Notes: a model not told the origin generated them from the sequence alone. Counted from the stretch's first letter, positions 1 to 42,382 are shown. The stretch: 64,000 nucleotides of DNA from a virus (IMGVR_UViG_3300031576_000038:754-64753); one strand, 5' to 3'. Numbers and translations are program-made.

Positions 1-112
1 TGTACCGTCGATTGATACCGAGCGTGAAGTTCACGACTTTCTTCCCACCATCGGTGGTTTTGATTTCCGGGTCGCGAACGAAGTTACCCAGAAAATGACA
101 CTGATTCATCAT
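1..112 (-). CDS. ssb: single-stranded DNA-binding protein (SSB), N-terminal part; gene continues beyond window start
   Basis: Minus-strand translation from the ATGATG at 107-112 gives MMNQCHFLGNFVRDPEIKTTDGGKKVVNFTLGINRRY, the canonical SSB OB-fold start. A GGAGG sits upstream. The ORF runs off the window edge. Confidence 0.6.
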   Translation of the reverse strand, partial: MMNQCHFLGNFVRDPEIKTTDGGKKVVNFTLGINRRY

Positions 113-179
113 GGCCAATGGCCCTCCGAAAATTGGGTTGAAGTACATTGCGTTGGCCCAACCCATCAATGGCCAACTA

Positions 180-1841
180 TCAACTCGCCTGCCAAACTTT
201 CTTGACTATGAGTGTGTTCGAGTCCTTCTTGTTGTCGCGTTCACCTTGGATGATGACGGTGTTGCCATGTGTCAGCAACCCACCGTATTCGCGCCACGTC
301 TCAGGAAAACAGACCACGTCTTCGAGAGCACAACTGGAGTCTGAGATGGTGAGGAATGCCATCTTCTGGCCAGCACTCTTGCCCTTCTTGGTCTTGACCT
401 CGCGGAACTGCTGGACTTCCACGCCGAACATCAGGAATCCGGCACGGCCGGCAAGGTAGTCTTTGCACGTGACGTTGACCATGCTCTGGTCGCACGAGTC
501 AATTTTCGAGCACGTGATGCTGATGCCGAGAAGCTGTTCTTCGAGCCACGCAATCCAGTGAGGGGTATCGACCTGAGCAGAGGGAGGGTTGTCCAGGACC
601 TGCTTCTGCGACTGGATGAAGCTGATGCGATTCTTGTTTGCCGCGCCGCCGCCTTCCTTCTTGGTTCGAGCGAGCGGCCCGAGCACGAAGCTAAGGTTCC
701 GTTGAGATGGTAGTCTCGATGGGTCCTGATGCCAATTCTGAACCCATTGTTGTTCCTTCTCGGTCAGCTTCGACCAGGCGTGGTACTCGGCGAGCATCCG
801 GCTGCGGGTCATGCTGAACCAGCGTAGGGCTCCCACTTCGATGAGGCGGCACACGACGTTGGTCGAGAGAGAGTTCGAGAGATTGACCAGGAAGTCGAAC
901 CAGTCCATCTTACCGAGGTCTTTGGGCTCTTCTCCAACGGCCTCGATGAGCTTCTTGATTTGTCCGTCACCCACGCCCTTGATGTCTGTCAGACCGAATC
1001 GAATCACCTTCCGGTCTGTTTGAAAGTTAGGCTCCAAAGACCTCAAGTCAGGCGGCTCGACGACAATATCAAAAAGCTTTGCGTCATTCACAAGCTCGTT
1101 GATTTCTTGGAGCGGGTCTTGCTTGAACTGAGCGTTCAGCAACCAACTGGTGAAGAAGGCGACCGGGAAGTGAGCCTTGATGTACGCGGACTTGTAGCCG
1201 GTGATGCCGTAGGAACAAGCGTGGCTCTTGTTGAAGCTGTACCGCTGTGACTTTTCAATCCACCCGAAGACTTCCTCGGCCTGCTCTTTGCTGATGATGC
1301 CCGTCTTCTGGACTCCCTCAATAAACATAGTCTTACACTTGGCCATTTCAGCTGGAAGCTTTTTGCCAATGGCTTTTCGCAGCACGTCAGCTTCTTGGAG
1401 GGAGAACCCGGCCACAGCCTGGGCAATGGCCATCGCCTGTTCCTGGTAAGTGAGCACGTTGTAAGTGGGCCACAAGATGGCGTCGATAGCCGGGTGGTAG
1501 GGGCGGATGTCCGCCTCTTTGTTCTTGCGACGGCAGTAGTGCTGTGTCATGCTGATGCCGTCTTCGTCCACGGCTCGCAAGCAACCTGGTCGGAGCAACG
1601 CTCCCAGCGCGGTGATGTGCTCGTAGCATTCCGGCTTGAGCTTCTTGGTCCACTGTTTGCCTAAATTGGATTCGAGTTGGAAGACACCCTTGGTGAGACC
1701 GCGACCGAGCAGCCCCCAGGTTGCTGGGCAGGCTTCGGGAGCAAGGTCGCAGTCGAAATTCAAAAAGGGCACAACGTCAGGCGGCGGATTCTCTTCGATG
1801 ATGGGCCAGGCGCAGCCACATGGAAACTGATACAGATTCAT
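180..1841 (-). CDS. dnaE: DNA polymerase III alpha (DnaE), C-terminal fragment (fingers, beta-binding, OB fold)
   Basis: The 553 aa ORF carries GVFQLES and FNKSHACSYGITGYKSAYIKAHFP, which are DnaE fingers motifs. It has no PHP or palm domain. The partner ORF is at 3649-5652. Confidence 0.85.
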   Translation of the reverse strand: MNLYQFPCGCAWPIIEENPPPDVVPFLNFDCDLAPEACPATWGLLGRGLTKGVFQLESNLGKQWTKKLKPECYEHITALGALLRPGCLRAVDEDGISMTQHYCRRKNKEADIRPYHPAIDAILWPTYNVLTYQEQAMAIAQAVAGFSLQEADVLRKAIGKKLPAEMAKCKTMFIEGVQKTGIISKEQAEEVFGWIEKSQRYSFNKSHACSYGITGYKSAYIKAHFPVAFFTSWLLNAQFKQDPLQEINELVNDAKLFDIVVEPPDLRSLEPNFQTDRKVIRFGLTDIKGVGDGQIKKLIEAVGEEPKDLGKMDWFDFLVNLSNSLSTNVVCRLIEVGALRWFSMTRSRMLAEYHAWSKLTEKEQQWVQNWHQDPSRLPSQRNLSFVLGPLARTKKEGGGAANKNRISFIQSQKQVLDNPPSAQVDTPHWIAWLEEQLLGISITCSKIDSCDQSMVNVTCKDYLAGRAGFLMFGVEVQQFREVKTKKGKSAGQKMAFLTISDSSCALEDVVCFPETWREYGGLLTHGNTVIIQGERDNKKDSNTLIVKKVWQAS

Positions 1842-2104
1842 CTTTTGCCTCCGAGTGTAACCGCATCAATCTCAAGTGGCATACCGCCAAGCGTAATAAC
1901 GATTGGGGGCTGCGGCCTAACATTGTGAAGAATCATGTGCTCGCCTTCGACCGTGTCGAAGTGCCAGTCACCGTTTGGCAATGCCTCGATGTCACCAGCG
2001 ACCTTTATCTCTCGGTTCCACAAGTCAGGACCGTCATACCAATTGAGGGTTCCTTCAAACTCAAGAACTACTGCTCCGAAGCGCACCTTCATAGGATGCC
2101 CCAC
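1838..2104 (-). CDS. hypothetical protein
   Basis: 88 aa ORF packed between the DnaE C-fragment and the next gene. Confidence 0.35.
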   Translation of the reverse strand: MGHPMKVRFGAVVLEFEGTLNWYDGPDLWNREIKVAGDIEALPNGDWHFDTVEGEHMILHNVRPQPPIVITLGGMPLEIDAVTLGGKR

Positions 2105-2301
2105 ATTTTGTAGTGAGCCAGGACTTCACCCAGGGTCGGGTCGGGGATGGCGTGATGACATTCTTCAATGTAGAAGTGCGTTTCTTGTAACAACGGCTTC
2201 AGCTTCTTCAGCACTGCTTTCGCAGCTTTTGCTGTTGTGAAAGTGGCAACCGTGCCTTCACAGGCGCAGTCCTCTTTGTCTTTCCATCGAAGAATGTGCA
2301 T
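2089..2301 (-). CDS. hypothetical protein
   Basis: 70 aa ORF in the packed minus-strand block. Confidence 0.35.
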   Translation of the reverse strand: MHILRWKDKEDCACEGTVATFTTAKAAKAVLKKLKPLLQETHFYIEECHHAIPDPTLGEVLAHYKMWGIL

Positions 2302-2648
2302 TAGTTGAGACTCGCCGTCATGCCATAGATGATGCGGTAGCCCACGAGTTCGCAGGCTGCCCGCATCGCCAGAGCCCCGGCTGCAAATGTGTCTGCTTCA
2401 GCCTGGGTCTGACCAACAAAGACGAAATAGTCGCTGAGGCTTCGTAGCTCTGGCTCGTTGACGCAAGCCTCAACGACTCTTCCTTCTTCACCTTCGACAC
2501 GTTGCAGTCCCAAATGACGCAAGTTGAGCTTGCCGTCTGGACACACCCAGCCGTTGCCTTGCTTGGTCAGCGGAATGGTCTCCGACAACCAGGACTTGTA
2601 GCTCGGCCGATGGACCCACAAGATGACTGCATATCGTTGCTTTGTCAT
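2301..2648 (-). CDS. hypothetical protein
   Basis: Start chosen at MTKQRY. Its ATG overlaps the stop of the upstream exonuclease gene as ATGA. Confidence 0.45.
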   Translation of the reverse strand: MTKQRYAVILWVHRPSYKSWLSETIPLTKQGNGWVCPDGKLNLRHLGLQRVEGEEGRVVEACVNEPELRSLSDYFVFVGQTQAEADTFAAGALAMRAACELVGYRIIYGMTASLN

Positions 2649-3298
2649 GCGGCACCCTTGAGAGAGCCCTTGAACTTGATGACCTGCTTCTTCTGAAGGT
2701 AACGACACAGCTTCAGAAACTTCATGATGAGCACGCCGGTCTGCCGAGCGTCAATCAGAGCGTTGTGAGCGCCGTCCAGCGTCAGGCCGAACCACGGCCG
2801 GAGGGTGTCCATGTTGAACTTCTCGGGCTCGCGTTCGTTCTCGAACCAGTGGAACATGAAGTCTTCCAGGTCGAGTTGGGTCCGCCGACTGAAGAGAACG
2901 GTCTTCTCCTTCTTCGGTCCATGCAGCAGGTTCAACTGCTCGGCGAACAGCAAGTCGAACGACCTGATGTTCTTGCCGGCCGCGATGGGAGCCATGAACT
3001 GAGTGCCCTTCGGATTGAAGCGGTTCACCCATTCGATGAACTGGTTCCACACAACGGCCTGGTCCGGAGCCTTCTCAAGCTCCTCGCGCGTGATGCGGTT
3101 GATTTTCAACGCCTCATCCTGGAGACGGTCAAAGTGGAGCGGCTTCATGACCGCGTAGAACTCGCCGCCCTTTTCGATGGGGTACGGCTCCAGGCTGCGG
3201 CAGTTGTAAGCTTTGCCGGCGACCGAGATGGCCTCGTGAAACTTCGGGTCGAGACCACCGGTCTCAAAATCAAACACCACAATGTCCACATGATTCAT
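2645..3298 (-). CDS. DnaQ-like 3'-5' exonuclease (DEDDh family, epsilon-like)
   Basis: Motifs VVFDFETGG (Exo I) and HNALIDARQT (Exo III). Start placed at MNHVDIVVFDFETGG, preceded by GGAGG. A longer N-terminus up to 3430 is possible. Confidence 0.7.
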   Translation of the reverse strand: MNHVDIVVFDFETGGLDPKFHEAISVAGKAYNCRSLEPYPIEKGGEFYAVMKPLHFDRLQDEALKINRITREELEKAPDQAVVWNQFIEWVNRFNPKGTQFMAPIAAGKNIRSFDLLFAEQLNLLHGPKKEKTVLFSRRTQLDLEDFMFHWFENEREPEKFNMDTLRPWFGLTLDGAHNALIDARQTGVLIMKFLKLCRYLQKKQVIKFKGSLKGAA

Positions 3299-3638
3299 GT
3301 GGCGGTTCCTCCAACGGTGCCTGTTGAGGTTCGGACTCTTCAACCGGCACCAGGCTGAGAAGAGCGCCGCCGTCTTTTTGGTCAACGCGAATTTCCAAAG
3401 CGGATTCGTGACAAACGTTCGTGATGTCATCAGTCACAAAGATTTCGCCGCCGGCTGCCATGAGCACTGCGGCAATGGTTTCGCGGCCACGGTGGAAGTT
3501 CACTGCGGCCCGCTGGTTCGCTTCGACCAGCGCCATTTCGAGTGACGAGACAAGTTGGTTCTGTAGTTGCAGCAGGTTTTCGAGTTCCTGAATCTGCACT
3601 TCGGCGGGCGTCTTCTTTTTGAAAAACCATCCAAGCAT
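3270..3638 (-). CDS. hypothetical coiled-coil protein
   Basis: Internal start at MLGWFFKKK, immediately after the stop of the DnaE N-fragment. Confidence 0.4.
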   Translation of the reverse strand: MLGWFFKKKTPAEVQIQELENLLQLQNQLVSSLEMALVEANQRAAVNFHRGRETIAAVLMAAGGEIFVTDDITNVCHESALEIRVDQKDGGALLSLVPVEESEPQQAPLEEPPHESCGHCGV

Positions 3639-3648
3639 TGGTGAGTCC

Positions 3649-5652
3649 TTACGCGCGGCCAGTTCTGATAATGTTCTCAGCCCCCATGATGCAGTCGAGA
3701 GTCCTGAGCCCGAGGATGTCGAACTTGACCAGGCCCATCTCTTCTGCGTCACGCATGTCTACGCCGACAATCATGTGGCCGGAGGATTTGTCGAAGACCA
3801 TTGGGACGATGTCAGACAACACCTCTGACGTGATGATGAGTCCGCTCGCGTGCTTGCCCTGGGACCTCTTTGTCCCCTCAAGGCGTATAGCCTGTGCGAA
3901 CTCGATTGCAAGAGGACCTTCGAGGTCCCCCTTGTCGTTGATGAAGCACCACTCCTTCAGTGCCTCAGCGTTGTTCTCCAGTGCCCAGTGAATAATCGAC
4001 GACTCGCCGGTCTCTTCCATCATCTCCTGCAACTCGTCGGCAATGGCCGACTCGTCCGGGATGTGTTCGGTAATGCGATTCATCTCTTCGTAGTTGCAGC
4101 GTTCACGCGCTCGCAACACGTCTTTCATTGCACCGCGCCCTTGCATACGACTGAAGGTCACCATCTGGCAGACCCTGTCCTCGCCGTACTTCTGGCGGAT
4201 GTAGGCGATGACCAGTTCGCGAATGCGAATGGGGAAGTCGGAGTCGATGTCGGGCAGGGCCACGCGGTCTTTGGTGTTACGGCCGGCGTTGTAGAAACGC
4301 TCGAAGATGAGGCCGAAGGCCAGCGGGTCAATCTTGGTGATGCCGATGAGATAGGACACCAGGCAGCCAGCTGCCGAGCCGCGACCTTCGCCAACGCGGG
4401 ACTTCAGTTGCTCAACGGCGAACCGGATGAAGTCTTGCACAATGAGAAAATAGGATGAAAGTCCAGCTTCGGTGAGAACCTGGAGTTCGCTCTTCACACG
4501 CTCGGCGTACTTCGCCTGGTCCTTCTTTGGGACCTTGGTTGTAATCTTCTTGGTCCATCCGTCCCTGGCCAATTGACGCAGGTAGTCGTCAGGAGTCATG
4601 CCCCCGGGACACTGGAAGGTCGGAAGCATGGGCTTGCCAGAAATTTTGATGGGCTCGCACATCTCGCCGATGAGACGAGCATTGCTCAGTTCTTCATCGG
4701 TGTGGAGTTCGAGCATCTCACCTGAAGTCGGAATGTGGTAGCGATTGGACTTGAAGAACGCGCCCAGGCCCACGTCTTCAGCCGCATCGAGCTTGCGCTG
4801 GACCTCCTTGAGGGTGGTTTCAAGGGCTGAGCAGAGGAGGATGCGTTGGTCGGCGGCGTCCTCCATGCGTGGATAGTGAGAGTCGGCCGTGGCGACGGAA
4901 GGCGTGTGCGTTTGGAACGCGGCTTCGCGAAGGCACTCCGCAACGACGACCGATGGCGGCAAGTTCGCGTGGTCAACCAGTTGAATCTCGACCCAAAAGT
5001 TCTTCTCGCCGAACAGCGATTTGTAGCGGGCGATGGTCAGCTTGGCTTGCTCCAACCAGTCGGACCGCAACATGCCCTTTGCCTGCTCATATGTTCGAGC
5101 CCCAAACGCAGCCTTCGGTTCCGCGAACAAGCAGTTCGCCAGGTCCGAGCCCATGTGCCCGCTGAACGTGATGAAGTTGCCCTTGCTGTAACTGGCCAAC
5201 CTCTCCAGGTCTAAGCGTGGCTTGCGATAGAAGACTTCGGGCTTGTTGGACGCGCTGGATGCCTGCACCAGCCCTTTCCATCCGGCCGGGTTCTTGGCGA
5301 GCACGCACAGGTGACTATGGAAGCCGTTCGTCTTGTCGCGAACTGTGGCGTCACGCTGGGCGATGTAGAACTCGCAGCCGGCGATAGCTTTCACGCCAGC
5401 CTTCTCGAACTTCTTGCATCCGCAGCCCTTCTGACATTCCTCGCCGTTGTGATGGATACGCTTAGGATGGCCGCATTTGCAGACGCTGCCCAGGGCTGAG
5501 AGGAACGATGGCACCCCAGCGATGGTGCCGTGGTCGGTGAGAGCGCAGCCGGCGAATCCGTTCTCGATAATGCGTTCAGCAATCTGCTCGGGCTTGGAAA
5601 GCCCGTCAAGCAGAGAGAAATGCGAATGCGTATGCAATGGGAACCAACTCAT
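3649..5652 (-). CDS. dnaE: DNA polymerase III alpha (DnaE), N-terminal fragment (PHP and palm domains)
   Basis: The 667 aa ORF starts MSWFPLHTHSHFSLLDG, a PHP domain. It carries PDIDSDFP and FDILGLRTL palm motifs. It ends where the E. coli alignment reaches about residue 575. No intein motifs are visible. Confidence 0.85.
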   Translation of the reverse strand: MSWFPLHTHSHFSLLDGLSKPEQIAERIIENGFAGCALTDHGTIAGVPSFLSALGSVCKCGHPKRIHHNGEECQKGCGCKKFEKAGVKAIAGCEFYIAQRDATVRDKTNGFHSHLCVLAKNPAGWKGLVQASSASNKPEVFYRKPRLDLERLASYSKGNFITFSGHMGSDLANCLFAEPKAAFGARTYEQAKGMLRSDWLEQAKLTIARYKSLFGEKNFWVEIQLVDHANLPPSVVVAECLREAAFQTHTPSVATADSHYPRMEDAADQRILLCSALETTLKEVQRKLDAAEDVGLGAFFKSNRYHIPTSGEMLELHTDEELSNARLIGEMCEPIKISGKPMLPTFQCPGGMTPDDYLRQLARDGWTKKITTKVPKKDQAKYAERVKSELQVLTEAGLSSYFLIVQDFIRFAVEQLKSRVGEGRGSAAGCLVSYLIGITKIDPLAFGLIFERFYNAGRNTKDRVALPDIDSDFPIRIRELVIAYIRQKYGEDRVCQMVTFSRMQGRGAMKDVLRARERCNYEEMNRITEHIPDESAIADELQEMMEETGESSIIHWALENNAEALKEWCFINDKGDLEGPLAIEFAQAIRLEGTKRSQGKHASGLIITSEVLSDIVPMVFDKSSGHMIVGVDMRDAEEMGLVKFDILGLRTLDCIMGAENIIRTGRA

Positions 5653-5798
5653 GTGCTCTCCTGTTCTTTTTTCAGAAGGCGGCGAAGCCGCTTGCTTGAG
5701 TTTCGTTTTGCTTTGCGGGCCATACCGCGCTTCGACTGGATGGTCCCGGCATCATTACTCTGGGTGATGGTCTTGGCTGTTACTTCTTTGCGTTTCAT
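5649..5798 (-). CDS. small basic protein (49 aa)
   Basis: Reads MKRKEVTAKTITQSNDAGTIQSKRGMARKAKRNSSKRLRRLLKKEQEST. Its TGA stop overlaps the ATG of the DnaE N-fragment. Confidence 0.3.
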   Translation of the reverse strand: MKRKEVTAKTITQSNDAGTIQSKRGMARKAKRNSSKRLRRLLKKEQEST

Positions 5799-5800
5799 GG

Positions 5801-6412
5801 TTAGGCTGCTGCATTTATGTGTCGGTGGTTCAAGGTTACCAGACGGTAGAACTCATAAAATTGCTGCTCAGTAAGTTTGCCTTTCATGAGGTTGATTACT
5901 TTGTGGCACCACACGAGGTTAGGTGCTGAATATGACAAGTTTGAATCAAGCCTATCTAATGAGGCACAATCTGGACGACGCAACTCTCTATTGCTGGCTG
6001 GCATGTGCAAAGGTAGGCGTGTGTAATAACACGCGCGTTCCTGAAGAAGAAACTGTTTCCACAACTCGTCTGGCGTTGCCTCAAACGCAATACTTCGCTT
6101 TTGCGCACTTTTGAGAACCATCTTCATCGTGGCATGAGATAACTCACCAGCGAGAGGAGGCGGCGGTTGCCGCCCAGAGATTAGGTTACATCGGGCACAC
6201 CCGACACTTTGATGCCTGTGAAGTCTACTGCCTAGTCGCACGCTTTCATATCCACAATGGATACACTTACAATCCCAAAGTGCTCCATGAGGACTTGTCT
6301 TGGTGCTTCTCCCAAGCGCTTGTTGTGTCCCAAATATCTGCCCAGCAATATCAAATGCTAGACAAAATTTGCCATCTTCGCGATTTCTGTTTGGTATACT
6401 AGGCATCATCTT
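5801..6412 (-). CDS. hypothetical Cys/His-rich protein
   Basis: Internal start at MMPSIPN. Carries CIHCGYES and GCARC zinc-binding-like motifs. Confidence 0.4.
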   Translation of the reverse strand, partial: KMMPSIPNRNREDGKFCLAFDIAGQIFGTQQALGRSTKTSPHGALWDCKCIHCGYESVRLGSRLHRHQSVGCARCNLISGRQPPPPLAGELSHATMKMVLKSAQKRSIAFEATPDELWKQFLLQERACYYTRLPLHMPASNRELRRPDCASLDRLDSNLSYSAPNLVWCHKVINLMKGKLTEQQFYEFYRLVTLNHRHINAAA

Positions 6413-6860
6413 CTTGAAGTCCTTTCCGAATCTCCATGAGCAGCCGGCCCAGCCAGTTCTCGCCGTGGCCCTTGCAGATGCCCCAATAGACATCGCCCCA
6501 GGTGTTGCCTTCAACCAGCATGACGCTGCCGGTGTCGCGAAGTTGTTTGCCAAGCAAGCTGCCTTGCCTGAACTTCTGCGACAGTAGTCGCCGCATCACA
6601 TCGAGCTTGCGGTCATGCCAGTCAGTCGGCAGCAGGTGCTTGCAGGCTTCGGCAACCTTCTTTGCCTGCCCAGGCGTCTTTGCAGCCTTCACCAACTCGC
6701 GCGGCTCCTTGAGCGTGGGCCAGTGGCCGATGAACTTCTCGTACTGATAGGCGTGCTCGACGGTCGGCAGTTCCATGCCGTCTGCGGCCTTGACCATAGA
6801 CGGCCAGAAGTTGCTCAGGAAACGATTGGGGCCTGTGAAGGAACGAATCACCGGGTCCAT
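6399..6860 (-). CDS. NADAR (YbiA-like) domain protein
   Basis: Reads NRFLSNFWPS, PTVEHAYQYEKF and GNTWGDVYWGICKGHGENWLGRLLMEIRK. This lines up with the E. coli YbiA motifs FSNFAAWP, PTSEHYFQAQKF and DAYWGDGGHGKGKNRLGYLLMELRE. Confidence 0.8.
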   Translation of the reverse strand: MDPVIRSFTGPNRFLSNFWPSMVKAADGMELPTVEHAYQYEKFIGHWPTLKEPRELVKAAKTPGQAKKVAEACKHLLPTDWHDRKLDVMRRLLSQKFRQGSLLGKQLRDTGSVMLVEGNTWGDVYWGICKGHGENWLGRLLMEIRKGLQEDDA

Positions 6861-7297
6861 GTTGCACCTTTTGCTTTGCGGTCGTAGAGCACAATCGAGC
6901 CGGCTACTGCGAAGTTGAGACATTGAGTCGTTGGAATCTGGATGCAAGGGAACTGCTTCAGCAGTGCATCCGGTAGTCCACCACCTTCGCTGCCAAGCAG
7001 ATAGATGGCCTGGGCTGGGTGGACGAACTTCGGCAAGGAGAAGCTTCGCTCTGTCAGTTCAATGCACACCAAGCGCGAGTTCAGCGGCCGATGCGACAGC
7101 ATGTCCTCAAGGTCCTGGTAGTTGTAGCACGGCATATGCTGGGCGCTGTTGACTGTGTCCGATGACTGCCTCTTGTACTTCCTGCCCACCGTAAAGAGAA
7201 AATCGGCCTCGAACGCAAGAGCACTTCGGAACAAGGTCCCAACATTGCATTCCTTCTCCGGATACCAAATGCCAATACCGGCGTAGCCCCTAGACAT
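6848..7297 (-). CDS. SpoU/TrmL-like RNA 2'-O-methyltransferase (SPOUT)
   Basis: Start at MSRGYAGIGIW with GAGGAGG upstream. Carries LLGSEGGGLP and SIVLYD, motifs seen in the TrmH/TrmL family. Confidence 0.6.
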   Translation of the reverse strand: MSRGYAGIGIWYPEKECNVGTLFRSALAFEADFLFTVGRKYKRQSSDTVNSAQHMPCYNYQDLEDMLSHRPLNSRLVCIELTERSFSLPKFVHPAQAIYLLGSEGGGLPDALLKQFPCIQIPTTQCLNFAVAGSIVLYDRKAKGATWTR

Positions 7298-7493
7298 GGC
7301 CAACCTCCTCGTGATGACAGTCGAGACAGCGAAGGACAGGACCTTCGCCAAACTCAGCGTCAGTCAAGGCAAACAATGGAACGTCACACACAGGGCACAA
7401 ATAGTCCCTGACATAGATGCCGTCGTCGTGGTAAATAGACCGCAAGAACTCCTTGCCGTATGAGCATAGCTCACGGTAGCTGACGAGAATCAT
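7290..7493 (-). CDS. small zinc-ribbon protein
   Basis: CPVCD and CLDCHH motifs. Its stop overlaps the methyltransferase start. Confidence 0.4.
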   Translation of the reverse strand: MILVSYRELCSYGKEFLRSIYHDDGIYVRDYLCPVCDVPLFALTDAEFGEGPVLRCLDCHHEEVGHV

Positions 7494-8227
7494 AGCAAGT
7501 TCTCAATGACAAGCTGCGACCAGTTTTCGTAACGGTCGAGCAAGCTCCTGTGCTGTGAGACAGGCAAGAACTTGCCATTCTCCACCGCCGGGTCGCGAAA
7601 AGACAGCGGAGCGAAACCAACTTGAATCTGATGAACGATGCCGAAGTGGACCTTGCCAACGTCATCGCTGTCGTCATTGATGAGGCCGACGATGTTGGAG
7701 CTTCGCATCATACGAAGCGACACTTCCTCGTTCAGTTCTCGCCAGAAGGCAATGTCGTAGGCTTCGCCAGGTTCGCCGTCTGCCGGGTTGATGTGTCCGC
7801 CGACGCCGACTGACCACTTATCGTGCAGGCGGCTCTCGCCGCCCTTCTTCGTGCGCTGATAGCAGAAGACGTGGTTGTTGCGCCGCAAGATGGTATACGG
7901 GATGAGTTGCTTCAACTTCGGGTCCTTCTCAGCGCGGTCGCGGTCCACATAGAACAGGTTCTCCGGCGTGAGAATGGCAGACCGATAACGAAAAATTTCG
8001 GCCGGGTCCGCAATGATACCCTGGAACGTGCCGAGGAAGTCGAGCAGGTTCGCGTAGAAGCACAGCACCTGCTCGCCATTGTACTTCGATACCGGAACCG
8101 GAACTGGCTCAGGCTCAGCAGGAAGAGGCCAGTCAATGGCCGGCGGTTGGATTACCGGCAGCGGCACCGACGCCGGCGCGAGTGGCTTCTTCTTGAACAG
8201 ACCAGCGAAGAATTTGGAAAGGCTCAT
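7490..8227 (-). CDS. Nudix hydrolase with proline-rich N-terminus
   Basis: Nudix-box-like GGHINPADGEPGEAYDIAFWRELNEEVSL. Confidence 0.55.
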   Translation of the reverse strand: MSLSKFFAGLFKKKPLAPASVPLPVIQPPAIDWPLPAEPEPVPVPVSKYNGEQVLCFYANLLDFLGTFQGIIADPAEIFRYRSAILTPENLFYVDRDRAEKDPKLKQLIPYTILRRNNHVFCYQRTKKGGESRLHDKWSVGVGGHINPADGEPGEAYDIAFWRELNEEVSLRMMRSSNIVGLINDDSDDVGKVHFGIVHQIQVGFAPLSFRDPAVENGKFLPVSQHRSLLDRYENWSQLVIENLL

Positions 8228-9252
8228 TATGGCTTCCTTTGCTCTGCGGCTCGCCCGCCGCCGTCTCCGTATGCACGAAGGGCCTCGGGGTCACCATGCT
8301 TCTGAATCACCCGGTCCATTCCGAGTGCGATGGTTTCTTTCTTGATGTGCTGGCATATCGTTTCATCAGTGCCAGGGAACATCGTCTTGCCGAAGTGACA
8401 CAGCCGGTTGCACTTCCAGTCTGGATAGATGAGCTTTGGTCGCGTGCAGTTGCGAATCAGGTTGAAGCGCTTCTCCAGAATCTTCTTGGTGACTTCCAGG
8501 TCACTACGATTGAAGTCGAGCGTATAGGCACCGCCGTCGTTGATGAACACGATGGTGACTATGATTTCGGTTGCTTCCGGACACACCCGACTGAGGGCGT
8601 AGTGATAGAGGCGAAGCTGCGGGTCATTCCGCAAATCCTTCCACTCTTTTACTTTGCCAGTGGCCCAATCTTTGCGTTGGCCAGTCTTCCAGTCCACAAG
8701 CTCGATGACGCCGGGGCAGTCTTCCATTTCGCAGACCAGGTCCACGGTGCCCTTGAGCCCAAGGTAGCCTTCGATTTTGGAACCATCGGCCATCTTGTAG
8801 GAGTAGCGAGCCCAGGGCTCTTCGATGGTGAAGTCGAAATACTTCTCCGGCCACTTCACGATACGGTTGAGCGGATTGAACATGCCCTGAGACATGGTCA
8901 TCGCCTTGTAGGTCCAATCGCGGCAGTCGTCCAGGTCGGCCTCAGTCCAAATGTGCGTCGTCGGCCTGAGCTTCGTGTAACACTTCCATGCGAGGTCAAC
9001 AGCCTGGTCAGTCGTGAACTTCTTCACTGACCACTTCTCGCCAAGCTCTTCGTCCTCGAACACCTTCCTCTTCTGCTGAATCGCCAGCTTCTGTCTGGCC
9101 AGCAACTCCAGTGCCTTGTGGGTAATGGAGCCCTTGTCGGCCTTCTTATTGCCTGGCTCTCTCATGCCCAGCGTGTAGCTGATGAAGAATTTCTGCGGAC
9201 AAAAGTCCCAGGTGTTGTAACTGCTGCTACGAAGATAGAGTAAGGGAATCAT
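8227..9252 (-). CDS. PD-(D/E)XK nuclease, Cas4/RecB-family exonuclease-like
   Basis: Start at MIPLLYL. N-terminal CPQKFF, a DLVCEMEDCPGVIELVDWK nuclease motif, and a C-terminal Cys cluster CNRLCHFGKT...C. Confidence 0.6.
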   Translation of the reverse strand: MIPLLYLRSSSYNTWDFCPQKFFISYTLGMREPGNKKADKGSITHKALELLARQKLAIQQKRKVFEDEELGEKWSVKKFTTDQAVDLAWKCYTKLRPTTHIWTEADLDDCRDWTYKAMTMSQGMFNPLNRIVKWPEKYFDFTIEEPWARYSYKMADGSKIEGYLGLKGTVDLVCEMEDCPGVIELVDWKTGQRKDWATGKVKEWKDLRNDPQLRLYHYALSRVCPEATEIIVTIVFINDGGAYTLDFNRSDLEVTKKILEKRFNLIRNCTRPKLIYPDWKCNRLCHFGKTMFPGTDETICQHIKKETIALGMDRVIQKHGDPEALRAYGDGGGRAAEQRKP

Positions 9253-9476
9253 ACCAGGGGAGTCTCCTGCAAGAGGTCGCAATCCAAGCAGTGGTAATAA
9301 TGGTCTGAACCGCCGCCGTAATCGTAGTGAGTCCAATCTTCTCGGTGTTCGTGAGGACACGACTCTTGCAAGCAACGTAGCTTGGCTTGTAGGATTTTGC
9401 CTTTGGCCTTATGCTCGCGAATCCGCTGCTTGGCCTGCTCGACTTTGTCTTTGATGGTCTTCAAGCCACTTGGCAT
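9249..9476 (-). CDS. hypothetical protein (coiled coil plus zinc finger)
   Basis: Start at MPSGLKTIKDK. Third-position GC is high. An alternative overlapping frame runs 9409-9648. Confidence 0.35.
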   Translation of the reverse strand: MPSGLKTIKDKVEQAKQRIREHKAKGKILQAKLRCLQESCPHEHREDWTHYDYGGGSDHYYHCLDCDLLQETPLV

Positions 9477-9668: not shown

Positions 9669-10691
9669 TCACTGCACTTCCTCCTTGGGTGCCCAATCGG
9701 TGATGGCACCCTCTGGAGGCTGCTTGGCAAGGCCGTGGTTCACAAGCTTCTCAAGAACCAACTGGTTTTGACGTTCCATCGTCATGCCGTCGTTGAAGGC
9801 GACAATGGCGAACTTCGCCCAATCGAACTTATTGGGGTCAAGAGCGCACTCGCTTTCGTGCTGGTCTTGTCCTTTGAATATGTCCATTGTAAAACGAACC
9901 ACCACGCCGCCGTCGCCTTGAACGGCATCAACTTCGTTGGGAAAGCGGATGTCGTCGATGAACGCCACGTCGCCGCCCCAAGCCTTGATTTCGCGAATGC
10001 ACGCCTGAGCCCAGATGTCGCCCCACATGCGGCGAAAGATGCCTGTACCAACCTCTTGCAGCACTTGCCGCGCTGTCATTTGGTCTGTGGCCCCTGGCAC
10101 CTTCATGTAAGTCGGCAAGTATTCCTTCTCGGGCTGACGAATCGGCTGTTCGCCGTTCGGCGATGGAGGAGCCTGGACTTCTGCCGGCTTGTCTTCCTGC
10201 ATTGTGGATGCGAGCCCGACAATGCCGCCAACAACGCCGCCAACGGCAGCGCCGGTCACACTGACACCGGCTCCAATGGCAGCACCGGCAATCGCGCCAT
10301 GCACGAGGCCGCTGGTTGCATCCTTCCATCGCCAATGCTTCGGAGCGCCCTTCTCGTCACGCTCGTTGTTGTAAGCAGTGATGCGGTTGATAATCTCTTG
10401 GAAGTGCGGCAGGTCACCCCATAGGTATCGCGTGGGCGAGTTCTTGTCTTCGTCGGTGCCGTAGACTTGGCGTGGCTCCAGCCCGAGAACCTCGACGGCG
10501 AAGCGCTTGAGTGGCCCGGCCATCGAGAAGCGTTTCACGTTGGTATGCGTGGGAGGAAAGACTTTGTAACCGTCTATCCTCGCCTCACATTGCGGCTGCG
10601 GAAGAATCAGGTCAGCGTAGTTCATCAGGAACCGCACGCTTGTGTTCTTGCCGCTTTGTTTCTTACCGCTGAATCCGATGATTAGAGTCAT
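9669..10691 (-). CDS. deoxynucleoside monophosphate kinase (T4 gp1-like) with glycine-rich hydrophobic insert
   Basis: MTLIIGFSGKKQSGKNT is a P-loop. FSMAGPLKRFA and DDIRFPNE match dNMP kinase. There is an unusual GAIAGAAIGAGVSVTGAAVGGVVGGIVGLAS insert. Confidence 0.6.
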   Translation of the reverse strand: MTLIIGFSGKKQSGKNTSVRFLMNYADLILPQPQCEARIDGYKVFPPTHTNVKRFSMAGPLKRFAVEVLGLEPRQVYGTDEDKNSPTRYLWGDLPHFQEIINRITAYNNERDEKGAPKHWRWKDATSGLVHGAIAGAAIGAGVSVTGAAVGGVVGGIVGLASTMQEDKPAEVQAPPSPNGEQPIRQPEKEYLPTYMKVPGATDQMTARQVLQEVGTGIFRRMWGDIWAQACIREIKAWGGDVAFIDDIRFPNEVDAVQGDGGVVVRFTMDIFKGQDQHESECALDPNKFDWAKFAIVAFNDGMTMERQNQLVLEKLVNHGLAKQPPEGAITDWAPKEEVQ

Positions 10692-10692
10692 G

Positions 10693-11865
10693 TTATCTCC
10701 TGGCCTTTTCTAAGAGCGGCGAGAGCAGTTCCTTGACAGCCGAAGGCTGCATTTCGCCAAGGTCCTTCTTGGGTAGTTCCGGGCGGAAGATTCGATACAG
10801 ACGATGAAGCTGCTTGGTCAATGCTTCAGCGGCTTCGTTGCCTGGTTCGTCGCTATTGGTCAAGATGACGACAGAAATGGCACCTGAAGCTTCCAGGATA
10901 CATTGCTGCTGGTCACTAAGAGACGTGCCAAGCATTCCAACGCCTTGCCCAAAGCCCGACTCTTCGAGTCGCCACACATCCCCTGGGCCTTCACACAACA
11001 GGACTACGCCTGTTGTTTTGATAGTTCGCTGTGCGAACCAAAAATTGTACAGATGGCTTTCACGAGCGAAGCCATCGCTATTCCGCCACTTGGAGCACGC
11101 CTGCGGCGGATACTTGTTACAAAACGTCTCCTGGTCATGCCAGAGCTTGCATCCGTTGCATTGTGGATAGATACTACGAGCAGTGAAGCCGACACAGCAC
11201 GTGTAGTTGTTGTCGTAAATGGGCACAACAACTCTGTTGTAAAACGGTTTTGTTGGGTCCTTGCATAAGCCGGCGTCATATCTGTCGAGCACTTCAGCGG
11301 ACCATCCGCGAAGCTTGAAGTATTCAGCAGGTATGTGAAGGCGGTCGCGAACGTGGGCTCGGGTAACGCTACTCACTGGTACAGCCGGCGCTCTTGTCAC
11401 TACTGAAACAGTAGACGCGAAGGCTCTCTTTTCCAGTTCCTCGTCGTCCACCTTGATAGCCCATAGCTTTTGACCAATGAAGTTGCAACACCAGTCCACG
11501 GCTTCTTTGAAGCTGGCGCTGCGATTGCTGTCGGGGTTCATCCAGTCATACTTCTGATGCGACAGTATACCGCGCACGAAACCAACGATGGTCTTTTTGA
11601 AGAAGGCTTCGCAGTGATGCGTGTTGCATCGCCATTTCCCCGGGAGGTCCCCACTGTGATACAGGTTTAGACCACTTGGATTATCGCCGCCGTGAATTGG
11701 ACAAGCGCCAACGTAAAGCTTGTTTGTCTTGTGCAGGGAAAGGCCCAGTTTGTCGAACAGGTCGTCAAGCCGGCTGCACAGTATGAACTGAAGGGTCTGA
11801 ATACGACCCTGGTCATAATAGATTGAATCTGGCTTCATTCGTCCTCGCATGTATCCAAGGGGCAA
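10693..11865 (-). CDS. dnaG: DNA primase (DnaG-type: zinc finger plus TOPRIM)
   Basis: CPIHGGDNPSGL...CNTHHC zinc finger. TOPRIM motifs LCEGPGD and ILTNSDEPGNEAA. Confidence 0.8.
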   Translation of the reverse strand: MPLGYMRGRMKPDSIYYDQGRIQTLQFILCSRLDDLFDKLGLSLHKTNKLYVGACPIHGGDNPSGLNLYHSGDLPGKWRCNTHHCEAFFKKTIVGFVRGILSHQKYDWMNPDSNRSASFKEAVDWCCNFIGQKLWAIKVDDEELEKRAFASTVSVVTRAPAVPVSSVTRAHVRDRLHIPAEYFKLRGWSAEVLDRYDAGLCKDPTKPFYNRVVVPIYDNNYTCCVGFTARSIYPQCNGCKLWHDQETFCNKYPPQACSKWRNSDGFARESHLYNFWFAQRTIKTTGVVLLCEGPGDVWRLEESGFGQGVGMLGTSLSDQQQCILEASGAISVVILTNSDEPGNEAAEALTKQLHRLYRIFRPELPKKDLGEMQPSAVKELLSPLLEKARR

Positions 11866-12143
11866 TGGCGTCCGCTTCGCGTTGGCTCATCGTCGCGAAG
11901 TTGTGGACAGTGTTCACAGTCGCAATAGTCGTCGCTGTCAGCCTGACAGAGCGTGATAAGACGCTGTTGAAGATGGAGTCGTGGCTTTGGCAGGTTCAAT
12001 TCCGACTCAACGTAGCGCAGCGCCTCATTCGTCAGCCTTGTCAGTTCGGAAACTTCAGCGGCCTTTATCGTCAGGCGGCGAAGCTTTCTCTTGAGAGCTT
12101 TCCTCTGTTTCTCCAAATCCAATTTGTCCTTGTTTTGTGTCAT
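11835..12143 (-). CDS. hypothetical coiled-coil/Cys-rich protein
   Basis: Internal start at MTQNKDK. It overlaps the DnaB 3' end, so the start is uncertain. Confidence 0.3.
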   Translation of the reverse strand: MTQNKDKLDLEKQRKALKRKLRRLTIKAAEVSELTRLTNEALRYVESELNLPKPRLHLQQRLITLCQADSDDYCDCEHCPQLRDDEPTRSGRHCPLDTCEDE

Positions 12144-13569
12144 TGACCACGAATCCTTTCTGAGTGGCCGCAGAGCCTGCTGCCATCTCGCTTTTCGTTG
12201 GCCCTTCAGCAATCTTGGCTCGTTCGTAGGTCGCCCGCATGTTGATGTAGTCGCCGTCTCGGAGACCAGGTCCGTGCCGGCAAATCAGCGGCATCAACTT
12301 GTGAGTATAGGTTCGGGACTCGCCAGACTCGCTGGCTCGTTCCTCGTCGGCCTTCCACTTGTAAATGCTAAAGCTCGTCACATCATCGAGGATACCGTCA
12401 GAGCCACGAATGACTCGGGTGTCTTCGTAGTCAATGCCGTCGCGATTCAATTGCGCGAAGGCCAGGCAGCTGACGCCGTACCGCCCCATGAAGTTCTTCA
12501 GCCCGCTCGTCATAAAGCGGAGTAGTTGGTGCTCGGCGATGTTGTTCTTGATGGCCGTCGCACTGATGAGCTTCAGGTAGTCGAATATGATGACGCACGG
12601 ATTCGCCTTGCCGTTGCCGGCGAGCCCAACGGTTCGCATGACCCAACGGCGCATCCGTGCCAGGATGTCCTCGAACTCCATTCCAATGACAGAATCGTAG
12701 AAATACGGAAACGTAGAAAGACGCTCCGATGCCTCCATCAGCCGCTTCTTCTCTTCCCTGCTAAGTTTGCCCCTCTCGATACTTTCGCTAGGGATGTCCG
12801 CGAGACAGGCCCCCACGCGAATCTGGTGCTCTTCCTTCGTCATCTCACGGTCGATGTTGAGTACCGGGACCTTCACCACGCCCGCGATGTGCAGGCCGAT
12901 GTTGTCCACCAGGAACGTCTTGCCAGACTTCTGGCGGGCTCCGATGAGGTCAACGCCATTGCCCCTCAAGCCGCCGCCAATGGCCCTGTTGTAGCGTGTG
13001 TAGGGCGTTGGAACGCCCATCATCTGGCGCGGGTTGTCAATCAGGTACTGGTAGTATTCGGCGGCACCTTCACCCATCAGGCCAGGTCCGGACGAGTTCC
13101 CGCCAGCCAGCCGCGTAGCGAACTCGCAAATCGGGTTCTCAGCCAGGCCGACGATTTCTTCGAGCGGCTCGTCGCCGGTGACCGCTTCCAGCCTGGGCTC
13201 GATGGCCTTGACCTCACCCTTGAGGTCGCGGGTGATTTCCAGCTTACGAACGCGAGCCGCCAGGTGTCGAACTGTCGGCGGCTCAACCACCATCTTCATG
13301 ACGCCGCGCAAGTGAGCGGCGTCTTCTGTCTTGTCGAAGGCGCTGCTCAGGCCAAGCGAGTTGGCTGCGGAGAGCACCGAAGGGAAGTCAACCTTGTCCA
13401 CCTGGCGGTCTCGAAGTATGTGTTCGAGGCACGCGAATAAAATCTGATTGGTCCTGATGGCGAAGCTTTCCGTCCTGACGATGTCGGCCACGTCCATGTA
13501 GGCGTTCGAGCCAAACAGGAAGAGGCCGGCGAGCACGCCGCGTTCTGCGGCCGGGTCCACGAGAATCAT
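12055..13569 (-). CDS. dnaB: replicative DNA helicase (DnaB family)
   Basis: DnaB N-domain ERGVLAGLFL, Walker A GARQKSGKT and RecA-like core motifs. Start at MILVDPAAERG overlaps the upstream stop as ATGA. Confidence 0.85.
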   Translation of the reverse strand: MILVDPAAERGVLAGLFLFGSNAYMDVADIVRTESFAIRTNQILFACLEHILRDRQVDKVDFPSVLSAANSLGLSSAFDKTEDAAHLRGVMKMVVEPPTVRHLAARVRKLEITRDLKGEVKAIEPRLEAVTGDEPLEEIVGLAENPICEFATRLAGGNSSGPGLMGEGAAEYYQYLIDNPRQMMGVPTPYTRYNRAIGGGLRGNGVDLIGARQKSGKTFLVDNIGLHIAGVVKVPVLNIDREMTKEEHQIRVGACLADIPSESIERGKLSREEKKRLMEASERLSTFPYFYDSVIGMEFEDILARMRRWVMRTVGLAGNGKANPCVIIFDYLKLISATAIKNNIAEHQLLRFMTSGLKNFMGRYGVSCLAFAQLNRDGIDYEDTRVIRGSDGILDDVTSFSIYKWKADEERASESGESRTYTHKLMPLICRHGPGLRDGDYINMRATYERAKIAEGPTKSEMAAGSAATQKGFVVNDTKQGQIGFGETEESSQEKASPPDDKGR

Positions 13570-14270
13570 TTCACTGCCCTCGCGATGCAACTGTTGCAGA
13601 TGTATGAGCCGCGTTCGTCGTCTTTGCTGAGCCGGCGCGGAGCAGCGTTCGGATTCACTTCCTCCGTGCGGTCGCATTTGCTGCATTTCAGCGTCACCAT
13701 CTTCACTGGCGGACGCCTCGGACTCGGTGCCTTGGGCAGCACCTTCTTGTCGAACTCAGATTCCGCTGCGGCCAGTTGGCCGTCATCCACAAATGTGTTC
13801 GTCATGCCAGGCTTGAACGGTAGTTTGCGGGCCTCCCTCTTCCCGTCTTCACGCACCTGCTGGGCTGGCTCGTTGTGTTGAACTCGGAACTTCGCGTATT
13901 CATCTTCCGGTTCGGGTTCTGGTTCCGGCTCTAAGTCAGGCAGCTTCGTACCGGCCGGAGCGCCGGCGAGTTGGCCGTTCTCGGCAAACCGTTGAGCGAG
14001 CTTGTGAGCAACCTCTTTTGCCTTGCTCTTCTTCTTTGGCTTCACCGCTTCGGTCTTGGCCGCTTCGCGTTCTTGGTAAGCCTTCTCAGCCGGCTCAAGC
14101 ATCGAGTTGCACTTGTCACGCAGTTCCATGACAAGCGCGTGCCAACTGCCGCCAGCGTGAGCATGTGGGACAATGGCTTCCCCGGTCAGTGCCGTGTAGC
14201 CATCGCATACCAGTTGCCAGTTTGCCGATTTGATGCCTTTGCGAATCAGGTCCAGGGGGGTAGCCATCAT
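13566..14270 (-). CDS. hypothetical protein with C-terminal zinc ribbon
   Basis: 234 aa with CSKC...CNSC at the C-terminus and an acidic EPEPEPEPE linker. Confidence 0.45.
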   Translation of the reverse strand: MMATPLDLIRKGIKSANWQLVCDGYTALTGEAIVPHAHAGGSWHALVMELRDKCNSMLEPAEKAYQEREAAKTEAVKPKKKSKAKEVAHKLAQRFAENGQLAGAPAGTKLPDLEPEPEPEPEDEYAKFRVQHNEPAQQVREDGKREARKLPFKPGMTNTFVDDGQLAAAESEFDKKVLPKAPSPRRPPVKMVTLKCSKCDRTEEVNPNAAPRRLSKDDERGSYICNSCIARAVK

Positions 14271-15097: not shown

Positions 15098-16186
15098 TCA
15101 CTCGCTGTCTCCACTCGTTGGGGTGCCGACAATGCCGCGAAGCTTGTCCTCCAGGAGCTTGACCCATTCCGGGTTCTCAAGCAGGGCCTGGTAGACCTTC
15201 TCGCCGCCCTGATACTTTGGCGGCTTCTTCTCGTCCACGAACTTCAGGACGAACCATGAGCCGCTAAGCTCGACCAGGCCCGCGTCCATGCCCAGCACGA
15301 TAGCCTCATAGAGCTTGTCGATGCCGGTGCCGAAGCGAATGTGTGACACAGCCGTCATGCCGGGAATCATCAACTTGCTGGTGTTGCAGGCCCAATTTAT
15401 CTTGAGCCCGATTTGCTCTTCGCCGGCCTTCCACGCTTCCTTGCCGATGGTGCGGAGCATGTAGTCGTACTGGTACTGCACAGCCCTGGCTGACCGCTCC
15501 GATAGACGCTGCGTCTTGATGTCGGAAATCAGATGCGAAATGACCAGCATGATGGTTCGGTTGACGGGAACCACCTGGCTCATCTGACGCACGAACTGCG
15601 AGAACAGACGAGCGCCACCGGCAATGCCGCCGCTCTCGCCAATCTCGGCGTTGAGTTCTCCTTGGTCACATAGGGCCGAGGCCGAATCCAGGATGACGCA
15701 ACAGCCCGGGATGTCCTTGACACAACGGGCGACAATCCGCAGATGCTCGTGAGCCGGCAGAATGTGGCCTGGGCGCGACTGAATGATGCGGAACTTGTCC
15801 TTACTCAGGTCGAGTCCCTTGATGCCAGACAGCACGTTCCGGGCAAGCCGGCCTTCGACCTTGGCGTAGATGACCACTCGATTGCCGTTCTCCGGCTGCT
15901 GGCAGGCTGCCGCAATGCACAGAGCCAGCGTGGTCTTACCAGTCTTCGGATTGCCTGTAATGCCCACCCAGCTGCCTTCCTCGATGCCGCCAGTGATGGA
16001 GTCGATGGCCGGGCTGGTGGGGACAATTTGCGGAGTCGCGCTCAGTGCATCGGAGCCCGGAACGAAGACGCCGGCCCCGTATTCCTTGTCCAAGTCTTTG
16101 ACGATGCGGGCCATCACTGCCCCAACATCGACAACGTCGTCGGGCGGCTCGATAATCTCTTGTTCTTGTTTTGGTTTCTTAGCCAT
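15098..16186 (-). CDS. RecA/UvsX-like recombinase
   Basis: Walker A GNPKTGKTTLAL. Blocks YGAGV...GGIEEG and ILDSASAL are RecA-like. Confidence 0.75.
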   Translation of the reverse strand: MAKKPKQEQEIIEPPDDVVDVGAVMARIVKDLDKEYGAGVFVPGSDALSATPQIVPTSPAIDSITGGIEEGSWVGITGNPKTGKTTLALCIAAACQQPENGNRVVIYAKVEGRLARNVLSGIKGLDLSKDKFRIIQSRPGHILPAHEHLRIVARCVKDIPGCCVILDSASALCDQGELNAEIGESGGIAGGARLFSQFVRQMSQVVPVNRTIMLVISHLISDIKTQRLSERSARAVQYQYDYMLRTIGKEAWKAGEEQIGLKINWACNTSKLMIPGMTAVSHIRFGTGIDKLYEAIVLGMDAGLVELSGSWFVLKFVDEKKPPKYQGGEKVYQALLENPEWVKLLEDKLRGIVGTPTSGDSE

Positions 16187-38934: not shown

Positions 38935-38951
38935 GCCTTACCCCAAACGAA

Positions 38952-39024
38952 TGGCTCAGGTGGGATTTGAACCCACAGCATCACCCCGTCTCAGGGGGTG
39001 TGGTCTGCCGTTGCCTACCGAGCC
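38952..39024 (-). tRNA. tRNA-like gene (anticodon loop CTGAGAC, GAG; irregular D-arm)
   Basis: Perfect T-arm GTGGG-TTCAAAT-CCCAC and acceptor GGCTCGG/CTGAGCC with one G-U pair. Class I length. The D-arm pairs poorly, so this may be a pseudo-tRNA. Confidence 0.4.
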
Positions 39025-39170
39025 AAAATTGAGGGCCCAGACCGCCGGTACGCTGCCGTCAGTCGCGTCCGCTTATCCTACCACGTTCGTAGTTCTACGG
39101 ACGCTTCGCAGTCTCGCTCCACCTGGCAAGGGGACTCGAACCCAGCCGAGACTGTTCATGGGCCTTTGTT

Positions 39171-40066: not shown

Positions 40067-40069
40067 AGC

Positions 40070-42301: not shown

Positions 42302-42382
42302 CGAATCTCCTTGTAAAGGCTAAAGCCCTTACAAGAAGACGGTAGCGAATGTGTTCATCTCTTATCATACCCTCGGAAGCAG

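Follow-up and report, generated by a model that had tools for sequence, protein, structure and literature searches.

Full-length DnaE encoded in two pieces around a proofreading exonuclease gene in a clade of large uncultured phages

Phages related to T4 carry genes-in-pieces, in which inserted DNA has divided a gene into separately encoded parts. In Aeh1, nrdA is split by mobE into NrdA-a and NrdA-b, which work as two chains and whose new terminal tails are essential for activity (PMC3045599), and in the Aeromonas phages 25 and 44RR gene 43 is split into 43A and 43B (PMC2988022). We describe a comparable arrangement for dnaE, which encodes the DnaE-type alpha subunit of DNA polymerase III (Pol III), in a 64,000-nucleotide stretch of viral DNA (IMGVR_UViG_3300031576_000038:754-64753, hereafter the window). 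The N-terminal half of the enzyme (N-half, gene dnaE-N) and its C-terminal half (C-half, gene dnaE-C) are encoded by two separate open reading frames (ORFs), and an exonuclease gene lies between them (Table 1). We consider it likely that this C-family polymerase consists of two non-covalently assembled chains that are co-expressed with a proofreader. The genes-in-pieces of T4-related phages are its closest analogues, and it is an essential gene split by an insertion rather than a new category. In both cases the gene is contiguous in relatives and is divided at one split point, and the two intact pieces lie on the same strand around inserted DNA, without inteins or introns. Non-covalent assembly restores function in the genes-in-pieces, whereas at this locus assembly is presumed. 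The present case also differs in that the polymerase belongs to the C-family rather than being a PolB enzyme or a ribonucleotide reductase. Additionally, the conserved intervening gene encodes the polymerase's own proofreading exonuclease instead of a homing endonuclease, and the split has become fixed throughout a clade that is very large and deep, instead of in a few phages.

Divided C-family polymerases have been described in two other settings. The split DnaE of cyanobacteria and the metagenomic 'fractured' DnaE genes (Dassa et al. 2009; PMC2677866) are likewise each encoded by two ORFs, and in the fractured genes the halves are neighbours with a gene between them. However, those halves bear split inteins through which they undergo trans-splicing, a homing endonuclease gene intervenes, and the split sites are different. 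The halves in the window carry no N- or C-intein fragments and have no homing endonuclease between them; HNH or LAGLIDADG genes are found in the gap of only some relatives. T4-like jumbo phages have a minimal split Pol III alpha (Iyer et al. 2021; PMC7824862), which is also a C-family module made of two stand-alone proteins that are predicted to reconstitute an enzyme. It is without PHP, HhH and OB domains, its genes are far apart, and it occurs alongside a PolB replicase. The jumbo-phage version divides into an N-terminal nucleoside triphosphate-binding and a C-terminal Mg2+/template-binding subdomain, whereas in the window a full-length DnaE is cut between palm and fingers, with the PHP, HhH and OB domains present and both halves in one predicted operon. 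The bacterial Pol III core (alpha and epsilon) and PolC resemble the locus in pairing a C-family polymerase with a DEDDh exonuclease. Bacterial alpha is one chain, however, where here there are two pieces, and the bacterial exonuclease is encoded either at another genomic site (E. coli) or as a fusion within the PHP domain (PolC), while here its gene is nested at the palm/fingers boundary. Four PHROG families (phrog_7513, 11165, 12219 and 13169) match only parts of DnaE, which is consistent with the existence of other dnaE fragmentations in sequenced phages. In the open-access papers searched we found no description of an intein-free, full-length DnaE cut between palm and fingers with a nested proofreader gene; the related reports there concerned split inteins, the minimal jumbo-phage Pol III and genes-in-pieces.

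A first-pass annotation of the window had read two ORFs on the same strand, about 1.8 kb apart, as one full DnaE, and had placed the break between LGLRTL and the GVFQLES region. The break is located as it claimed, and the pairing of the ORFs is borne out by their Pfam domains and by their complementary tiling of DnaE profiles. The two halves tile phrog_405 without overlap (42–614 and 631–1078 of 1190) and do the same for the NCBIfam model PRK05673 (55–576 and 592–1061 of 1146). As judged from these alignments, the cut is at the boundary between the palm and fingers domains and no DnaE sequence is lost. The PHP domain, the palm Asp triad and the fingers, HhH and OB regions expected of a DnaE-type polymerase are all present, but they are not on a single polypeptide, and curated score thresholds are not reached. 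PRK05673 gives 416.7 bits for the N-half and 295.6 bits for the C-half against a cut-off of 1002, and TIGR00594 gives 417.7 bits for the N-half against a cut-off of 434.35.

Residues 6–224 of the N-half match the Pfam PHP domain (2.3e-29), and residues 357–648 match the whole DNA_pol3_alpha profile (2–260 of 260, 3.5e-67). None of the nine metal-ligand positions of the PHP domain is vacant, and clade members retain the His ligands. The catalytic Asp triad is found entirely within this half. It consists of D468 and D470 (in PDIDSD) and D645 (in FDILG), all three invariant across 31 homologues, and we take these residues to be the counterparts of D401, D403 and D555 in E. coli. The N-half ends with FDILGLRTLDCIMGAENIIRTGRA followed by the stop codon. 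This stop is 22 residues past D645, where the post-palm helix ends, and 3 residues past RTG, an ending typical of its subclade. The helix (residues 650–664) is modelled confidently, and in all of the best 120 homologues the N-half ends about 24–27 residues past FDILG. The PHP domain also contains a Cys/His-rich insert resembling an inserted zinc finger, which roughly 45% of the clade possess and the others lack. In one protein (P0197, 762 aa) an N-half is joined to a circularly permuted YpsA/SLOG domain exactly at the clade breakpoint (Pfam 1.6e-35).

The C-half begins MNLYQFPCGC...TKGVFQLES. This start is about 50 residues ahead of GVFQLES and 26 positions into the profile of the fingers domain. 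Its residues 36–180 match DNA_pol3_finger (profile 27–165 of 166, 4.8e-39), and further matches are to HHH_6 (3.9e-10) and to an OB domain (1.6e-5, 25.2 bits, slightly under the Pfam cut-off of 27 bits). The fingers motifs GVFQLES, RPG and FNKSH are conserved. One locus (L007, 12804–14463) has a second break, within the C-half, which yields a 392-aa fingers and HhH protein and a 171-aa OB protein and leaves DnaE in three pieces.

The gap between the halves is 1,807 nt long (1842–3648). Once gene starts had been corrected using homologue lengths and the context of ribosome-binding sites (RBSs) and overlaps, five ORFs were recognized, which agrees with the first-pass description of a DnaQ-like exonuclease and four small genes. 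The start of the exonuclease was set at Met45 of the longest ORF. In addition to RNase_T it matches phrog_192, 'DNA polymerase exonuclease subunit', and its DEDDh residues (D10, E12, D115, H178 and D183) are invariant across 76 orthologues. Its matches to dnaQ and PolC exonuclease models are weak and far below equivalog cut-offs, and we therefore assign it to the superfamily and not to epsilon proper. It has no PDB sequence match at E<=0.01. None of the four small ORFs in the window's gap matches a nuclease family. One of them, orfA, is weakly conserved and found only in the window's subclade, with blastp matches in L005 (43% identity), L006, L001 and L009.

A separate start codon and RBS serve each half. 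For dnaE-N the RBS is GGAG, 8 nt ahead of the ATG, and for dnaE-C it is GGAGG, the start codon overlapping the orfD stop (ATGA). From dnaE-N to dnaE-C the successive junctions are TAAGGA-N7-ATG, GGAGGA-N8-ATG, ATGA, TAATG, ATGA and ATGA. No terminator-like site was found on the minus strand between positions 1 and 6800, and promoter-like matches in this interval are at chance level. As read from the sequence, dnaE-N through dnaE-C is one translationally coupled operon of seven cistrons.

The best 120 matches to the N-half (50–76% identity) all consist of PHP and palm without fingers; most are 594–698 aa long, with one 543-aa fragment and a few longer proteins. For the C-half the best 120 matches, also at 50–76% identity, are without exception separate fingers-to-OB proteins, the longer of which contain inteins. 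Bona fide inteins, some with LAGLIDADG, were observed at other sites in the N-half (P0083, P0122, P0127), in the C-half (P0274, P0321, P0332, P0373) and in L006 (13160–15748). The neighbouring DnaB and glycosyltransferase are also intein-bearing (L005, L007). Searching 1.84 billion cluster representatives exhaustively gave a similar picture of the split. No fingers motif is present in 144 of the best 150, which are therefore N-half-only or N-half plus intein, and six are unsplit, two of these being truncated at about 880–890 aa.

At least 595 stretches in IMG/VR encode a relative, on contigs of up to 244 kb. We fetched 80 of these loci and located the three genes with hidden Markov models; 69 loci contain both halves. 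In every one of these the gene is divided into separate ORFs at the same split point, and an exonuclease ORF lies in the gap and is never fused to either half. The gap ranges from 0.65 to 6.8 kb, with a mode of about 870–900 bp that corresponds to the exonuclease gene alone, and larger gaps carry added genes (UDG, cupin-like, LAGLIDADG, HNH-like). Thus, across the sequences compared, the split with the exonuclease gene in the gap is clade-wide, most loci have no other gene there, and the four extra small genes are specific to the window's subclade. The order in seven loci is DnaB, primase, other genes, PDDEXK, other genes, dnaE-N, variable genes with the RNase_T exonuclease, dnaE-C, SSB and glycosyltransferases. 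Identity to the window co-varies among the three proteins over 64 loci (Pearson r=0.89 for N-half and C-half, 0.88 for N-half and exonuclease, 0.87 for C-half and exonuclease). The first-pass annotation had considered that the ORFs might be paralogous fragments of different polymerases, a possibility countered by the complementary tiling, the conservation and the co-divergence. On this comparative evidence the halves are neither paralogous fragments nor decaying remnants. Because the intein-free arrangement is common to hundreds of related metagenomic phages it appears to be a conserved design rather than a broken gene, and the two-piece dnaE is very probably functional.

Comparison with related genomes also identified uninterrupted dnaE genes, at loci L010–L012. 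The unsplit proteins P0168 (1133 aa), P0154 (1151 aa) and P0244 (1102 aa) are at 43–48% identity and are encoded in the same kind of phage genome. L010 and L011 show full synteny (DnaB-primase-DNMK-PDDEXK...SSB-glycosyltransferases), while on the 4.8-kb contig of L012 only the SSB gene directly downstream is visible. An orthologous exonuclease gene lies two genes upstream of dnaE in L011 and about 4 kb downstream of it in L010. The exonuclease of the unsplit relatives is thus encoded outside dnaE, and the two states differ by the position of the exonuclease gene. We propose that an exonuclease gene beside an intact dnaE came to lie inside it, and that the four small genes would have been added to the gap later, in the window's subclade. 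Two non-covalent polypeptides and an ancestral insertion had been offered by the first-pass annotation as separate explanations; both find support, and they are compatible rather than rival. Among the GenBank phage loci that were spot-checked (matches of at best about 33% identity), dnaE is contiguous. Three Cys-rich ORFs related to one another adjoin dnaE in L010 and L011 and are found within the gap in L006.

Since the exonuclease gene lies inside dnaE in the split state, the products would have to assemble. The halves would not be joined at the level of DNA, RNA or protein but would be translated separately. Because the loop that follows the post-palm helix, where the cut falls, marks a domain boundary, the pieces should be able to fold alone and no residues would be lost. 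The separately folded chains may then associate through a large palm/fingers interface to give the normal Pol III alpha fold, with an active site composed of the Asp residues of one chain and the fingers, which bind deoxynucleoside triphosphate and template, of the other. The exonuclease, translated from the same mRNA, would probably join the complex as proofreader. The PHP domain, with all its metal ligands, could also proofread, as the PHP domain does in M. tuberculosis DnaE1 (PMC11348249). An AlphaFold model of the halves as a fusion, N(1-667) plus C(1-533), was built from a 96-row alignment of stand-alone halves and natural unsplit relatives. It has a mean predicted local distance difference test score (pLDDT) of 89.9 and a predicted template modelling score of 0.85. 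In Foldseek it matches over its whole length Pol III alpha from Taq (2hpi, E 2e-58), DnaE1 from M. tuberculosis (7pu7_A, TM 0.74/0.82) and alpha from E. coli. The model shows that a single canonical alpha fold can accommodate the two sequences jointly. A 109-residue junction peptide modelled separately gave a pLDDT of 36.

The C-half carries a conserved head of about 22 residues in 54 of the 69 loci and in the window. The consensus is M-x-x-Y-x-F-P-C-G-C-x-W-P..., then ...P-L-L-D-F-D...D-C-P-A-T-W, and among 85 sequences Cys8 and Cys10 are each conserved in 95% and Cys38 in 100%. This head is absent from the unsplit P0154, P0168 and P0244. The third Cys occurs in 56 of 57 lineages with the Cys-x-Cys pair versus 3 of 13 without it. 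In headless loci the C-half begins directly at the FD...TWDL segment, and the N-half stops right after the helix. Because some split lineages lack it, the head appears to be an elaboration and not a prerequisite of the split. The Cys-x-Cys...Cys head may have a metal-binding or docking role, and could stabilize the new N-terminus or dock a partner. Outside the C-half, the sole Cys/His position that tracks the head is His317 of the N-half (about 4702–4704), which is present in 93% of lineages with a Cys-x-Cys head versus 23% of headless ones; no such position was found in the exonuclease. As a lead only, His317 is a candidate fourth ligand of the putative metal site. The 'RTG' tail of the N-half is limited to the window's subclade (14 of 57 lineages with a Cys-x-Cys head). 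The idea that tail and head form a co-evolving pair was dropped, the association being not significant (Fisher p=0.057, with phylogenetically non-independent samples).

If the halves were in fact joined, this would have to happen after translation or at the RNA level. Split DnaE proteins with split inteins do exist in cyanobacteria and among metagenomic fractured genes (PMC2677866), inteins are common elsewhere in this DnaE family, and the N-half tail contains a Cys (LDC) in the window's subclade. That Cys is a Lys in most of the clade, however, and the tail corresponds in alignments to the post-palm helix that unsplit relatives have, and appears as that helix in the model. Neither half has a Pfam match to a Hint or intein family at E<=0.01, in line with the absence of intein blocks noted in the first-pass annotation, while the same searches do find inteins elsewhere in relatives (P0083 and P0122 in the N-half, P0274 in the C-half). 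No intein of a clade member is located at the split point. The sequence that cannot be assigned to DnaE amounts to only about three residues at the end of the N-half and about 22 at the start of the C-half, too few for a Hint fold, and headless lineages have essentially no extra residues. For comparison, the split inteins in PMC2677866 have N-parts of 88–105 residues and C-parts of 33–54 residues. The cyanobacterial site also maps about 200 residues downstream, to C-half residues 201/202 beside FNKSH, where the NCBIfam models of the cyanobacterial pieces (PRK09532 and PRK07373) meet. An unrecognised split intein, very short or atypical, that ligates the halves is therefore extremely improbable. 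We give almost no credence to removal or skipping of the interruption at the RNA level by a group I or II intron, trans-splicing or ribosomal bypass. Phage polymerase genes can host introns, and T4 gene 60 provides a precedent for bypass. However, an Rfam scan of positions 1–8000 (E-value mode, both strands, permissive filters) returned 0 matches at E<=1, so the intron that the first-pass annotation had envisaged as a possible refutation did not appear. The gap is instead filled with coupled coding cistrons, one of them under strong purifying selection, its length and content vary from relative to relative, and each half is provided with its own translation start. It is also very unlikely that the gene is a remnant that is decaying or has lost function, or that the two proteins no longer form a polymerase and have been recruited to independent functions, such as nuclease activity for the PHP-bearing half and DNA or clamp binding for the other. 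Such an interpretation could draw on the failure of either half alone to reach NCBIfam equivalog cut-offs, on the intact PHP ligands, with which the N-half could act as a nuclease alone, and on the fusion of an N-half to an unrelated SLOG domain in P0197. Yet every locus examined retains both halves as neighbours in an unchanged order, and they co-diverge, with the catalytic Asp residues and fingers motifs conserved. In the part of the genome that was covered, the replication module of the window, and in the modules of its relatives, no other DNA polymerase, including PolB, was found.

Several points weigh against two assembled chains that descend from one split. We infer the physical assembly and the activity of the halves. 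As a guide to docking the model carries little weight, since the fusion is artificial and the network is already familiar with the DnaE fold. In the model the head (fused residues 674–698) is unplaced, the sole stretch with a pLDDT below 50, and it is missing from 13–15 split lineages, depending on the count (13 lineages; 15 of the 69 loci). In neighbour-joining trees of the N-half, with the distant unsplit DnaEs of L002–L004 as outgroup, the split state is monophyletic in 0 of 100 bootstraps, and a single clean origin is therefore not established. Unsplit L012 groups with the headless split loci L084, L087, L089, L091 and L092 in 67% of bootstraps, and unsplit L011 joins the L012 group in 55%. 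We had expected the unsplit forms to branch at the base; the point tree places only L010 there, while L011 and L012 are nested among split lineages. These findings would fit an exonuclease-bearing insert (tail, exonuclease and head) that is, or once was, a mobile cassette and entered dnaE repeatedly or spread by recombination or homing, with no single ancient split. The gap is a hot spot for added genes, and homing-endonuclease-like genes lie in or beside it (HNH-like in L006, LAGLIDADG in L007, and the HNH ORF at 5801–6553 in the window). However, the breakpoint is identical everywhere, and the exonuclease co-diverges with both halves and is orthologous to the exonuclease of unsplit genomes, as vertical descent predicts. 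The trees come from a simple method and are star-like, with short deep branches and weak deep support. On balance, we regard a mobile cassette as unlikely. A more speculative proposal, which we think doubtful, is that the exonuclease is an obligate third piece clamping the palm and fingers chains, that Cys8, Cys10 and Cys38 of the head, possibly with His317, form an inter-subunit metal site locking the assembly, and, as a linked possibility, that tail, exonuclease and head move between phage dnaE genes as a cassette. If true, the clamp would be the gene-level equivalent of a proofreading domain inserted between palm and fingers, and the moving cassette would explain the non-monophyletic split state.

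The usual view of a replicative C-family polymerase is of one large chain, and the known natural splits use inteins or concern a minimal accessory enzyme. A widespread clade of large aquatic phages, by contrast, appears to replicate with the catalytic aspartates and the fingers on different polypeptides. If the two pieces assemble, as we propose, they would provide a natural, evolution-tested split site in Pol III alpha that is useful for enzymology and for intein-free split polymerases. The locus would also offer a case in which to study how an insertion into an essential gene is first tolerated and later fixed, and the order dnaE-N, exonuclease, dnaE-C would serve as a synteny marker for an uncultured phage lineage. 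Annotation pipelines now label the halves as two 'DNA polymerase III alpha' fragments.

Table 1. Positions of the split dnaE locus and of other features in the window
Feature	Coordinates	Strand	Size or residues	Evidence and remarks
dnaE-C (fingers, HhH and OB)	180-1841	(-)	553 aa	Pfam, NCBIfam
C-half N-terminal head	1716-1841	(-)	residues 1-42 (MNLYQFPCGCAWP...DLAPEACPATW)	clade-specific
orfD	1838-2092	(-)	84 aa	ATGA overlaps with orfC and dnaE-C; no homologue in compared loci
orfC	2089-2301	(-)	70 aa	TAATG overlap with orfB; no homologue in compared loci
orfB	2301-2648	(-)	115 aa	ATG overlaps exonuclease stop (ATGA); homologue only in L005, the nearest relative (59% identity)
DnaQ/epsilon-like DEDDh 3'-5' exonuclease	2645-3298	(-)	217 aa	Pfam RNase_T 1.4e-13
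orfA	3270-3638	(-)	122 aa	directly upstream of exonuclease; no Pfam, PHROG or NCBIfam match
dnaE-N (PHP and palm/thumb of DnaE-type Pol III alpha)	3649-5652	(-)	667 aa	Pfam, NCBIfam
N-half C-terminal tail	3652-3705	(-)	residues 650-667 (LDCIMGAENIIRTGRA)	native post-palm helix
Cys/His-rich insert in PHP domain	about 5401-5484	(-)	N-half residues 57-84 (CKCGHPKRIHHNGEECQKGCGCKKF)	
HNH/endonuclease VII-like ORF	5801-6553	(-)		phrog_3322, 3118, 1035; immediately upstream of dnaE-N
NADAR-domain protein	6399-6947	(-)		9.2e-23; replication module
PD-(D/E)XK nuclease	8227-9375			replication module
dNMP kinase	9669-10691			replication module
Toprim primase	10693-11865			replication module
DnaB	12055-13686			replication module
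RecA	15098-16186			replication module
tRNA genes	38.9-57.6 kb (cluster 38951-57613)		16 genes	
SPFH/Band-7 protein	49409-50767	(-)		4.7e-16; tRNA region
Ro60/TROVE and vWA protein	52265-53500	(-)		Pfam vWA_Ro60 1.6e-67, TROVE 4.8e-35

The minus strand of the window bears nearly every gene, and the replication module occupies the first 16 kb. The exact N-half protein is also recorded on a metagenomic contig of 194,118 bp, and the source is a large uncultured phage. Searches of 50,697 GenBank phage records with blastn and tblastn identified no close cultured relative, the best match having about 33% identity. Split-polymerase contigs L093–L101 were found binned in metagenome-assembled genomes assigned to Chitinophagia, Flavobacteriales, Terriglobia, SAR202, Alphaproteobacteria and even 'Promethearchaeota'; mis-binning of phage contigs into cellular genomes is the almost certain explanation. 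A scan of genome collections gave matches only in such assemblies from unrelated phyla, and thus no host clue.

The HNH-like ORF upstream of dnaE-N is probably a free-standing homing endonuclease; it sits in a patch of low GC content (0.48–0.51 versus about 0.56). Elsewhere in the window, the gene for the Ro60/TROVE and vWA protein stands among the phage tRNA genes.

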